From IMG/VR virus record IMGVR_UViG_3300050821_002969, positions 64,001-103,362 of that record: a DNA stretch of 39,362 bases; one strand, 5' to 3'. Made by a program: the position numbers and the translations under genes. Shown one piece after another: positions 25,894 through 39,362 of this stretch. The stretch comes from a virus (Duplodnaviria > Heunggongvirae > Uroviricota > Caudoviricetes). The notes beneath the pieces were generated by a model. It was given only the letters and a program-made list of their open reading frames with translations. It searched no databases and was not told the origin of the DNA. Every line of letters begins with the position of its first letter. Position 1 is the first letter of the stretch.

Positions 25894-26379
25894 TTAAATG
25901 CTATACAAGATTCTACTGCCAACGCCAACCCCTTCGGCCAATTCAGCATCTATCTCTTTCTTGCGAGCGGCGGATACCATGGTCCACATCGTCTTGGCGG
26001 CACGGTAGGATAAATCTGTGGCAGCTTTTTTAACAACGGGGTCGATTGCCAACGATAAATCGGACATCGAAAAATAATCGCTATATTGCCGCATGGTAGC
26101 AAATTCGGGCAGTAAATCATCGGCGGCAATCTCGTGCAACGTGAACGGATGAATGATGCCAAAATATGCGTCCTTGCCCTGTATGTAGGTTGCGGTTTGG
26201 AGTTGGTTTACTGCGTTGCGAAGATCGGATGCCGTTAAAACGCCAGCAGTCTTTGGGATGAACCACTTTGGGCTACGCTTAACCCAAGAGATGAATTCGG
26301 CAAAGAACCCAACCTCTGCCATGGTTGCTGTAGCAACCCCAGCGCCAGCGGCTAATTGCAGGAAGCGTCTACGGTTCAC
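25894..26379 (-). CDS. Twin-arginine-signal protein containing rearranged major-capsid-like segments
   Basis: [18 protein letters not shown]; [17 protein letters not shown] matches this phage's capsid LSASLTRQAV..FAGIIHPF; QYSDY..AIDPVV..SYRAAKT. Confidence 0.7.
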
Positions 26380-36965: not shown

Positions 36966-37521
36966 TAACCACCTTGGGGTCGTAGTTTTTAAACTCTGGA
37001 TGCTTGCCTTGCGGCAGGCGGTCCATGGTTTCCTTTAGTCTGGCAAACGATACCGGCGCGAACTTCCACGAATCTACGCCAACATCTAACGACTTACCGA
37101 ATGTCGGCAAGCCGCCGTGGGAATGTCCATACAAATGCCACACACCGCGCAAGTCATGGTGCCACGTCCGCATCCCGTAATGGAATAAAACAATCTCTTG
37201 GCCTTCGACATTGATTTCGTCGTAGTGCTTAATAGACGCAAACCGCCACGGCATAGCCATTGCAATCTTTTCGTGATTGCCGATTATCAGATGAATCTCG
37301 CCGTGTAACTGCTTGGCTAGTTTTGCGATGTATTCCTTGTTGGCGTTGCGGCCAAACGCGAAGTCGCCTAAGTGGTAAACGGTATCCGTGGGCGAAACTG
37401 CGTTGTTCCAGTTATTGACAATCTCATTGTCCATTTCCCAAGATGATGCGAATGGGCGATTGCAATACTTGATAATGTTTCCGTGGCCAAAATGCGTGTC
37501 GCTAGTAAAGTGGGTGGTCAT
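36958..37521 (-). CDS. Calcineurin-like metallophosphoesterase
   Basis: SDTHFGH, HLGDFA, GNHE, FHY, GHSHG. Confidence 0.9.
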   Translation of the reverse strand: MTTHFTSDTHFGHGNIIKYCNRPFASSWEMDNEIVNNWNNAVSPTDTVYHLGDFAFGRNANKEYIAKLAKQLHGEIHLIIGNHEKIAMAMPWRFASIKHYDEINVEGQEIVLFHYGMRTWHHDLRGVWHLYGHSHGGLPTFGKSLDVGVDSWKFAPVSFARLKETMDRLPQGKHPEFKNYDPKVVNG

Positions 37522-37563
37522 GTTTCCTTAGATGCTTAACAACCCGTAAAAGGTCGCGGGAAG

Positions 37564-37794
37564 TTATTCGTGCTCAACCGTAAACGAAACATCGTTGGTT
37601 TCGGCTAGTTCTTGGATGTCGTTAACAAATTGATCCGCCCTAGACTGAAGTGTGCCCTCGTCTATTTCGCGGTCGGTTTCAAAGCCAAACGTTAAAAGCC
37701 ATTTACGCGGCGCTTCTGTGGTTGCCATGTTTTTCCCCCATTCTACAAGGTATTGGATGGCAGATTGCGGGAATTGGATGTAAAAGAAAAACAC
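37564..37794 (-). CDS. Hypothetical protein; real start likely MATTE near 37728
   Basis: Acidic ORF with RBS before the internal ATG. Confidence 0.4.
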   Translation of the reverse strand: MFFFYIQFPQSAIQYLVEWGKNMATTEAPRKWLLTFGFETDREIDEGTLQSRADQFVNDIQELAETNDVSFTVEHE

Positions 37795-37814
37795 CCCAGA
37801 TTACTCTGGGGTGT
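37782..37814 (-). terminator. Intrinsic terminator after the capsid gene
   Basis: ACACCCCAGA-TTAC-TCTGGGGTGT 10-bp stem with a minus-strand T run. Confidence 0.8.
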
Positions 37815-37830
37815 AAGTTGTTGAAAACGC

Positions 37831-39362
37831 TCAAGAAATCGACGCTTCTGCTTTCAGAAGTCGAAATCTTGGGTGGAGTGCCGCTGATTGTGGAACCCTC
37901 ATGGCTGCGTACTTAAAATTGTACGCGCATGAAGCGCCCACTACCCTTGCTGGATCGGCTACCGATGGTTCCCAGTTACGCACGATCAACTGATAATTCC
38001 GTTGTTCCGGGATTTCAGTTGCACCAAGCGATACCGAGAATACAGCATCTTGTCCGACAACGTAGGTACCGTAACCCGTCTTGCTTCCTGACGGGAAGGA
38101 CGCGAAGGTCGATGCGGTGGTTGTTTCAATGAATCGAGCGCCAGCTACATCTATTACGCGATACCCCTGTACACCACGCATGAGTTCTTCCGAACCCTCT
38201 TTGTGGTATTTGCAATCTGTTACCCGTAGTTTTTAACTACGCGGCCATCTCATTTCTGGATGACTCAATGCATCGCTGCATTGTTCGGACTATCTCTTTG
38301 CCCACTTGGGCATCGCCTATATAGTCTCTACACGTTCCCTTGCGGGCTTCGCTCGGTGTTTTCTCTTGCGAGACGTTCACCGAATTAGGGCGATTATCAG
38401 TTCTGGGTTTCCCTAGAATGACCCCGATGTTGAGGATATCAATTACGCCGCCTGCTGTATTGTCGTTCAGTCACTTTTGTTTTGGCAGCCAACGTCACCG
38501 TTGGTGCGCTCTTACTGTTACCAGCAAGGTCAGACTCTATCTTCACTAGGCGGCTGTCGCGCATTTCCTAGTGTCTGGCGTATTAGTCGTTACGGATTCT
38601 TGGTTATTGAGAAATTGGCAACGTTCCGCGAGTTTTTGTCTAACCTCGTGGTGTTTGCCTTCTAGGCGAACCCATTCGAGGGCCAACCTTGCTTGCTCTT
38701 GCTTGATTTTTAAATAAGGCAAGATTCCAAGCAGAAAAGGCTCCCGTGCTTCGCGTGTCAGAATGTGCCATGTCCAGCGCTTCCTGTGGTGCTCTTTTAC
38801 TTTTTTGACGCCGTAATAGCGCCCACCAAACATCCCCTGAATCCACGCAATGAGCGGGAAGTGAGAATTGTTGATGCTTATTTGCAACGAAGGCCGCATA
38901 AACGTTTTGGTTGATTTCCGGTAGTAGGTTTTGCCCTTAACCTTATAGGGCGCTCCTTCTCGGTTGGTTGCTTTCCCAAAACCCATGTAAATCGTGCCTT
39001 CAGCATCAAGCATAGAAGCGATGTACGACCAATCTGTATCTAGCATTTCTCGTAACCAAGCCTTTCCTCGGTATTGTCCTTGTGGACGTGATAATTATAA
39101 CACGGCAAGGGGTTCCACCGATATAGCCAGATTACGACCCATGTTTGTTTAGGTCGAACGCAGCAAAAGGGTGAATAATCCCAGCGAAAAGCCCATCCGT
39201 CTGGGGTCTAACGTCCGCACCACGCAGTGACATTACAGCCTGACGTGTCAACGATGCAGAAAGGAATTCGTTGTCAGTGCAGGAAATAACGATGCTGGTG
39301 TCGGCGGTAGCCTCAGCTTCAAACTCGGTACGAGCCAACGTGTTTGCTGTTAGAGCAGCACG
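37831..39362 (-). CDS. Major capsid protein, N4-gp56/P22-coat-like; 5'-truncated and spliced: join(39151..>39362, 38433..38471, 37831..38212)
   Basis: Spliced product RAALTANTL..GIIHPFAAFDL|LNDNTAGGVIDIL|KYHKEGSEELMRG..GARFIETT..YGTYVVGQDAV is one continuous frame. Confidence 0.85.
38213..38432 (-). ncRNA. Group I intron 2 (220 nt, ORF-less)
   Basis: P AAUUCGGUGAA, Q AACACCGAG, P7 GAGACUA/UAGUCC, P3 AUCGCC/GGCGAU, GCGA-capped P9, exon U.G pair, terminal G. Confidence 0.9.
38472..39150 (-). ncRNA. Group I intron 1 (679 nt) carrying a LAGLIDADG ORF
   Basis: P1 CGACCU/GGGUCG, P AUAUCGGUGGAA, Q AAUACCGAGG, P3 UCUGGC/GCCAGA, R GUAACGACUA, S GAAGAUAGAGUCU, terminal G. Confidence 0.9.
38546..39046 (-). 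CDS. Single-motif LAGLIDADG homing endonuclease (intron-encoded)
   Basis: YIASMLDAEGTI; LPYLKIKQEQA. Confidence 0.88.
   Translation of the reverse strand: MLDTDWSYIASMLDAEGTIYMGFGKATNREGAPYKVKGKTYYRKSTKTFMRPSLQISINNSHFPLIAWIQGMFGGRYYGVKKVKEHHRKRWTWHILTREAREPFLLGILPYLKIKQEQARLALEWVRLEGKHHEVRQKLAERCQFLNNQESVTTNTPDTRKCATAA

Follow-up and report, generated by a model that had tools for sequence, protein, structure and literature searches.

We analysed a 39,362-nt stretch of DNA, here called the window, that makes up the last 39 kb of a 103,362-bp contig (positions 64,001 to 103,362 of IMG/VR record IMGVR_UViG_3300050821_002969). The contig is the ~103-kb genome of a soil phage, whose single major capsid gene appears to be occupied by two independent mobile, selfish group I introns, which are tolerated because they splice and which do not serve as a regulatory device. 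We put the probability of this reading at roughly 90%. The introns had been predicted from the letters of the window alone (referred to here as the original prediction).

An IMG/VR search with the first 155 residues of the capsid protein returned 37 related loci. In 22 of them the gene is intron-less and matches the predicted spliced product in a single ungapped piece over 330 residues (80 to 88% identity). Because these homologues are collinear and ungapped, they fix the predicted splice junctions. All 22 read AFDL[L/M]NDNTAGGVIDILKYHKEG, unbroken across both junctions, and ~25 more intron-less copies from a JGI metagenome scan also read straight through. The coordinates originally given for the introns (38472-39150 for intron 1 and 38213-38432 for intron 2, minus strand) proved to be exact. 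The sequence also agrees with the description of both introns as lying after CCT, in phase 2 of a Leu codon, on either side of a 39-nt exon. Intron 1 is preceded by ...CGACCU and intron 2 by ...AUAUCCU, each has a terminal G, and both 5' splice sites fall after base 2 of a Leu codon. Each boundary can be slid by 1 nt with no change to the mRNA; the coordinates used here follow the group I rule of a U at position -1 and a terminal G. The joined frame reads ..AFDL LNDNTAGGVIDIL KYHKEG.., with predicted mRNA junctions (marked by a slash) of ..GACCU/ACUGAAC.. and ..AUCCU/CAAAUAC... The capsid peptide predicted to span them is AFDLLNDNTAGGVIDILK. From the true start, the spliced product has 330 residues (333 in the initial translation). 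The original prediction had suggested checking the upstream part of the gene for more introns. Exon 1 is collinear with the homologues over its whole length, starting at residue 1 and ending at the splice site, and therefore no further intron lies upstream.

The interrupted gene is on the minus strand, spans the join between the contig ends, and enters the window at 39362. The last 97 bases of the contig (window 39266-39362) are the same as its first 97 (G000:C1:1-97). Therefore, the genome is circular or terminally redundant, and IMG/VR rates it as 100% complete. The capsid start codon is a TTG at G000:C1:457 (L001:457), with GGUGA before it, and homologous proteins begin at exactly the same residue. 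From there, exon 1 runs for 572 nt in an open frame across the contig ends, and its 3' part occupies 39151-39362 of the window. It is followed by intron 1 (679 nt, 38472-39150), which has a homing endonuclease gene of 166 codons (38546-39046) in its P6 loop. Exon 2 (39 nt, 38433-38471) encodes L-NDNTAGGVIDI-L when the split Leu codons are included, and this segment is contiguous and nearly identical in the 22 intron-less homologues. Intron 2 (220 nt, 38213-38432) has no open reading frame (ORF). Exon 3 (382 nt including the TGA stop codon, 37831-38212) is collinear with the homologues to their last residue.

Both elements have the features of complete group I introns, in keeping with the original prediction. 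Besides the U at -1 and the terminal G, each has a P1 helix in which the end of the 5' exon pairs with a guide. For intron 1, exon CGACCU (39156-39151) pairs with guide GGGUCG (39140-39135) at 6 of 6 positions. For intron 2, exon AUCCU (38437-38433) pairs with guide GGGGU (38425-38421) at 5 of 5. A base-by-base check found P3, P4, P5, P5a, P6, P7, P8, P9, and P9.1 in intron 1, which has no P2, and P2 to P9.2 in intron 2. Thus, a P3-P8 core with the P3/P7 pseudoknot and J8/7 is present in both. In a sensitive regional run, Rfam model RF00028 (curated gathering threshold of 50 bits) matched intron 2 with 53.6 bits (E = 2e-12). It matched the 3' half of intron 1, the part downstream of the ORF, with 31.3 bits (E = 1e-5). 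Run over the whole genome, RF00028 returned only that 3' half, and a search of the whole window with the default Rfam filters had no match and missed both introns.

Covariation was counted in an alignment of eight ORF-less capsid-gene introns, made up of intron 2 and introns from relatives but excluding intron 1. The counts were made on a hand-drawn core structure that included the P3/P7 pseudoknot. In this family core, 91.8% of cells were paired, versus 31 to 39% when the partners were slid. Compensatory two-sided changes occurred at 28 of the 40 core pairs, including the pseudoknot, and in P7 itself at 3 of 6 pairs. No shuffle equalled the observed values for pairing or covariation. A covariance model built from the eight introns (R1), which had not seen intron 1, matched both halves of intron 1 (E = 3e-5 and 3e-3). 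Over the 103-kb genome, it found no copy other than the two introns. By these comparisons both elements are real group I introns, far beyond chance, and judged on its sequence the element is almost certainly functional.

The host gene was examined in the same way. All three exons matched the PHROGs family phrog_1357, "major head protein," in order (E = 3e-10 at exon 1). Among cultured phages, Tunturiibacter phage Tunturi_3 has the closest relative, annotated as a major head protein; its gene is intron-less, and the protein is 33% identical over the full length. We also used an AF2/AlphaFold model of an 88%-identical intron-less homologue, which has a predicted local distance difference test score (pLDDT) of 85. 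A Foldseek search with it gave 320 matches at E ≤ 0.001. The top ones were all phage capsid proteins, including those of N4, B2, Moo19, Pan3, and many others, with E values down to 1e-13. From this modelled structure the host protein has the HK97 fold, and the gene is the major capsid gene, as had been proposed. Pfam gave no match to the capsid exons. A second full capsid copy was not found in the genome. As the sole full copy in a complete circular genome, this gene has to be expressed. In the model, exon 2 (residues 192-204) covers a helix end, a loop, and a further helix. The family has ten nearly invariant residues, of which exon 2 encodes two, D194 and D202; on either side of it are D190, which is invariant, and K205, which is nearly so.

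The ORF in intron 1 (39046-38546) is intact and encodes 166 residues. A large protein collection contained four relatives. Searched against solved structures, the single sequence had no matches other than chains of I-CreI and I-MsoI. When the four homologues were made into a profile, it matched I-MsoI (3e-13), I-CvuI, and I-CreI over the full length. The protein has the motif IASMLDAEG, a variant of LAGLIDADG with E at the catalytic position. By the motif and the structure-profile matches, it is a single-motif LAGLIDADG homing endonuclease of the I-CreI/I-MsoI type, and it is presumably homodimeric. Pfam found no LAGLIDADG or other match in the protein itself, and only one of the four homologues matched LAGLIDADG_1 (0.0012). 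PHROGs labels the family (phrog_5046) "HNH endonuclease." This label looks wrong because the solved relatives are all LAGLIDADG enzymes (I-CreI and I-MsoI).

The nuclease gene is not confined to the P6 loop. It runs on through P6', J6/7, P7, and P3', and its stop codon is in the 3' strand of P8. The C-terminal SVTTNT (window 38546-38600, minus strand) is invariant in all four homologues and is encoded by J6/7-P7, so protein and RNA constraints overlap there. In three of the four homologues the frame continues through J8/7-P7' as KIES. This C-terminal stretch is thus predicted to code for protein and ribozyme at once. A 39%-identical nuclease homologue, P0152, was considered as a marker of the same site in another capsid gene, but it was rejected because it lies ~10 codons upstream of site A, the insertion site of intron 1.

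Site A is one of at least eight insertion sites used among close relatives of this capsid gene, with up to three introns per gene. Positions are given here in nucleotides of the phage's own spliced gene. Site A (581) is occupied in the studied phage and in the related loci L030, L002, L003, and L086, and site B (620), where intron 2 resides, in the studied phage only. The others are site E at 108 (L028, with a LAGLIDADG ORF), site C' at 838 (L003, with an ORF), site C at 850 (L004 and L028), sites D1 and D2 at 910 and 932 (L002, with a 22-nt exon between), and site F at about 974 (L028). Further introns were found in L060, L086, and L089. We delimited nine introns in L002, L003, L004, L028, and L030; in each case the 5' exon has a final U and the intron a final G. 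A tenth, at site F of L028, has the same ends by eye. Two kinds of intron use site A. The intron 1 type is found in the studied phage, in L030 (no ORF), and in L086 (with a 36%-identical LAGLIDADG gene), and the intron 2 type is found in L002 and L003.

Intron-bearing phages are 95 to 97% identical to the studied phage in exon 1, yet they share almost no intron, and most relatives are intron-less. That near-identical phages differ in this manner points to rapid gain and loss. We also looked at nucleotide conservation around the insertion sites. Sites A and B are in the 77th to 83rd percentile, moderately above average, and the other sites are average. The idea that the introns target the most conserved DNA is therefore weakly supported at best.

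These observations suggest how the two introns could persist. Each would fold into a ribozyme and remove itself from the late pre-mRNA by a two-step, guanosine-initiated reaction. The outcome would be a 330-codon capsid mRNA with a layout identical to that of the intron-less relatives. In a mixed infection, the LAGLIDADG nuclease of intron 1 presumably cuts intron-less capsid alleles near site A, and repair would then copy intron 1 into the cut allele. Intron 2, which has no nuclease gene and whose lineage sits at site A in sister phages, is only 39 bp off. It would be well within any repair tract and could be copied along. The exon 1 frame runs into an in-frame UAA that ends at intron nucleotide 19, so translation would stop 19 nt into intron 1, which would protect that ribozyme. 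For phage introns, stops of this kind are believed to prevent ribosomes from entering the ribozyme (PMC3984707). Intron 2 lacks an early stop: the frame entering from its exon is open for 65 codons, and this intron would be shielded from ribosomes only while intron 1 is unspliced.

Several points weigh against this reading. Splicing is inferred from sequence, as are the activity of the nuclease, its target site, and the co-conversion of intron 2. The ~450-nt ORF-bearing P6 loop of intron 1 splits its Rfam match, which keeps the score under the cut-off. Its P7 has only four contiguous pairs; the same P7 variant (GACUAA / AUAGAGUC) recurs in the ORF-bearing intron of L003, and the KIES tail conserved among the nuclease homologues implies it as well. 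An obvious P10 was seen in neither intron. Finally, after intron 1 has been spliced out, the lack of an early in-frame stop in intron 2 could let ribosomes in.

The original prediction had suggested that the two splicing events gate late expression. In this alternative, splicing sets the timing or dosage of late capsid output, and the introns are kept for regulation. In its favour, the only capsid gene depends on two splicing events, and ribosomes translating the nuclease ORF would run into the ribozyme core of intron 1, an overlap that might in principle link translation to splicing. However, about 50 relatives, Tunturi_3 among them, have no intron in the capsid gene. Intron content varies among phages that are nearly identical, and an intron 2 at site B was present in no other sampled contig. 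Such a pattern of presence and absence suggests selfish elements rather than a conserved regulator. We found no support for the gate, and we consider it improbable.

A second alternative is that exon 1 is sometimes joined directly to exon 3, giving a functional capsid variant 13 residues shorter and hence two isoforms. Part of this proposal stood. The reading frame would be kept. Both 5' exons end in CCU, there is a clear P10 in neither intron, and the guide of intron 2 (GGGGUC) is predicted to pair better with the end of exon 1 (GACCU, -7.3 kcal/mol) than with its own exon (-5.0 kcal/mol). The guide of intron 1 does not fit site B (-3.3 kcal/mol). Tandem group I introns around exons of 23 to 34 nt are described as skipping them. 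In engineered tandem introns, a short exon is lost if the first junction serves the second intron as a distal 5' splice site (PMC10136302). The ambiguity of the intron 2 guide therefore predicts measurable exon skipping by way of the distal 5' splice site, and some exon-skipped RNA is plausible. However, the 13 residues are among the most conserved of the protein. They are almost unchanged across 22 homologues and present in every intron-less relative. The lost stretch would take with it the two nearly invariant aspartates and, in the model, the helix end, loop, and helix. From this conservation, a useful protein that lacks them is not plausible, and a second working isoform is slightly less probable than the gate.

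The least probable alternative is that one or both introns have decayed and stay unspliced in a capsid pseudogene of a defective or mis-assembled genome. This could accommodate the sub-threshold Rfam score and short P7 of intron 1, the fact that splicing is predicted from sequence, and a 41-nt insert, unexplained, that breaks the frame of this gene in L028/L087. However, the core helices are all intact in both introns, the nuclease has an open frame, purifying selection on the exons is clear (99 to 100% collinear with homologues and no frameshift), the genome closes by its 97-nt overlap at 100% IMG/VR completeness, and related introns occupy the same site in independent samples.

The origin of intron 2 can be considered on the same data. 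It belongs to a different sub-lineage from intron 1, and among the sampled introns it is nearest to those at site A in L002 and L003 (68 to 69% identity). Its lineage uses three sites, all of which end in CCU (GACCU, AUCCU, and UGCCU). With the site-A relatives, the shared CCU ends, and a guide that pairs better with the site-A exon, intron 2 might have reached site B when a site-A intron reverse spliced into a look-alike ..CCU site 39 nt downstream. We regard this as a tentative and somewhat unlikely history. These data are circumstantial evidence of the kind used to argue for reverse-splicing transposition, and a 2014 review noted that direct experimental evidence for that pathway was still lacking (PMC3984707). 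If true, the locus would be a natural and compact test bed for the reverse-splicing pathway of mobility. An IMG/VR scan for the exon 2/intron 2 junction gave four matches (L043 to L046), all of which were chance matches in unrelated genes.

We compared the locus with known systems. The original prediction described phage group I introns as best known from genes for nucleotide metabolism and replication. This is overstated, since major capsid genes with group I introns include those of the lactococcal phage Tuc2009 and mycobacteriophage LittleE (PMC3706429), as well as that of SerPounce (see below). The LittleE and Tuc2009 introns are self-splicing, as those described here are predicted to be, and have the same U at -1 and terminal G; that of LittleE carries a LAGLIDADG-like gene. 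They splice with an efficiency that suffices for the most abundant protein of the virion (PMC3706429). They differ in that there is one intron per gene and that the LittleE nuclease gene is on the opposite strand; the likeness considered here is one of architecture.

Relatives of intron 2 are found further afield. The Bacillus phages SerPounce, Claudi, and Baseball_field (Salasmaviridae) have a capsid-gene intron with 84% identity to the intron 2 core over 67 to 68 nt. In SerPounce (L054, KY947509.1, 14216-14427) two coding sequences are annotated as "major capsid protein," and the 212-nt gap between them is an unannotated intron (R1, 67 bits). The terminase intron of Lelliottia phage phD2B has 78% identity to the intron 2 core over 67 to 68 nt (R1, 75 bits). 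In that phage (L055, KM370384.1, ~37310-38096), the terminase large subunit gene is split by an intron bearing a homing endonuclease gene. All belong to the same ribozyme family as intron 2. However, their capsid and terminase genes are unrelated to the one studied here, the insertion sites are different, and each has a single intron.

The closest parallel to the tandem arrangement may be orf142 of phage Twort, which, in the summary that PMC10136302 gives of Landthaler and Shub (1999), has three group I introns, a 23-nt exon, and exon skipping. Going by that summary, it too is a late phage gene into which several group I introns have inserted, with a very short exon between two of them (23 nt, compared with 39 nt here and 22 nt in L002), and skipping is possible because the introns are related. 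Unlike here, the Twort gene it describes is not the major capsid gene, and the introns are of class IA2 with P7.1/P7.2. These helices were not seen in the introns studied here, in which P3' abuts P8. In further contrast to Twort, one of our pair carries a LAGLIDADG gene, and the two come from different sub-lineages. PMC10136302 also outlines tandem group I introns in the 23S rRNA gene of Coxiella burnetii, with a 34-nt exon between them and exon skipping observed. As outlined there, that gene likewise has two different group I introns a few dozen nucleotides apart, but it is a bacterial rRNA gene with no frame to preserve. The nuclease resembles the homodimeric LAGLIDADG enzymes I-CreI, I-MsoI, and I-CvuI in size (about 160 residues), in its single motif (here ..SMLDAEG..), and in its profile similarity over the full length. 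Those enzymes come from chloroplast 23S rRNA introns, whereas here the ORF overlaps the ribozyme core and the protein is invisible to Pfam.

The introns are thus a well-known type of selfish element and ordinary in kind, but as an intron hotspot this gene family is unusually active. In an uncultured clade of soil phages, a capsid gene of ~1 kb has at least eight sites and up to three introns (four in a distant relative). It has micro-exons down to 39 and 22 nt, and two intron lineages compete for the same site. In a limited literature search, we did not find descriptions of such a density of sites in one capsid gene family, of two intron lineages at one site, or of guide ambiguity between neighbouring sites. 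The family offers a compact natural system in which to ask how tandem ribozymes avoid mis-splicing, how introns that lack a nuclease spread, and how phages tolerate ribozymes in their most highly expressed gene. There is also a consequence for annotation. Gene callers would report such a capsid gene as two to five fragments plus ORFs labelled "hypothetical" or "HNH."

Some further observations concern the relatives. The sister phage L002 (5103-5558), which is 95% identical, has three capsid introns, two of which (233 and 201 nt) surround its 22-nt micro-exon. A distant family member, L056 (1-3530; JGI 3300045621), has five capsid exons and four group I introns. Each of these introns has one nuclease ORF: one Endonuclease_7, one of unknown type, and two LAGLIDADG. 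The 41-nt capsid insert of L028 (3333-3374; the same contig as L087) follows ..TACGAT, begins with an in-frame TAA, and breaks the frame. It is far too short for a group I intron. It holds GGTCGTAG, which is complementary to the preceding exon and matches the guide of an L056 intron at exactly the same site. The insert could be the remnant of a deleted intron, a sign of a pseudogene, or something else. In two intron-less relatives (L064:1080-2093 and L066:1865-2878), the capsid gene is 24 nt longer by an in-frame insertion.

We also scanned for the core motif of intron 2, which returned L047 to L053. All but L051, which is the L003 contig, are in large unrelated contigs. The six others (L047 to L050, L052, and L053; 79 to 225 kb; IMG/VR sample 3300045988) hold the exact 21-nt P7/P3' core motif, and the family model gave no score for them at E ≤ 0.01. 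Introns that have diverged, or that an ORF splits, may be present in other genes of these contigs. A tblastn search with exon 3 against 50,697 phage records gave no match.

Other observations concern the studied phage itself. Its capsid gene starts with TTG, compared with ATG in the relatives. Any linear annotation of the phage record would truncate this gene because it spans the join between the contig ends. Another gene, at window ~25942-26238, has two short stretches that are ~40% identical to capsid residues 92-140 and 157-198. Finally, a G+C-rich hairpin followed by a U run was found by eye 17 nt past the capsid stop codon (37782-37814, minus strand). It had weak terminator-like Rfam matches and is likely to be an intrinsic terminator.

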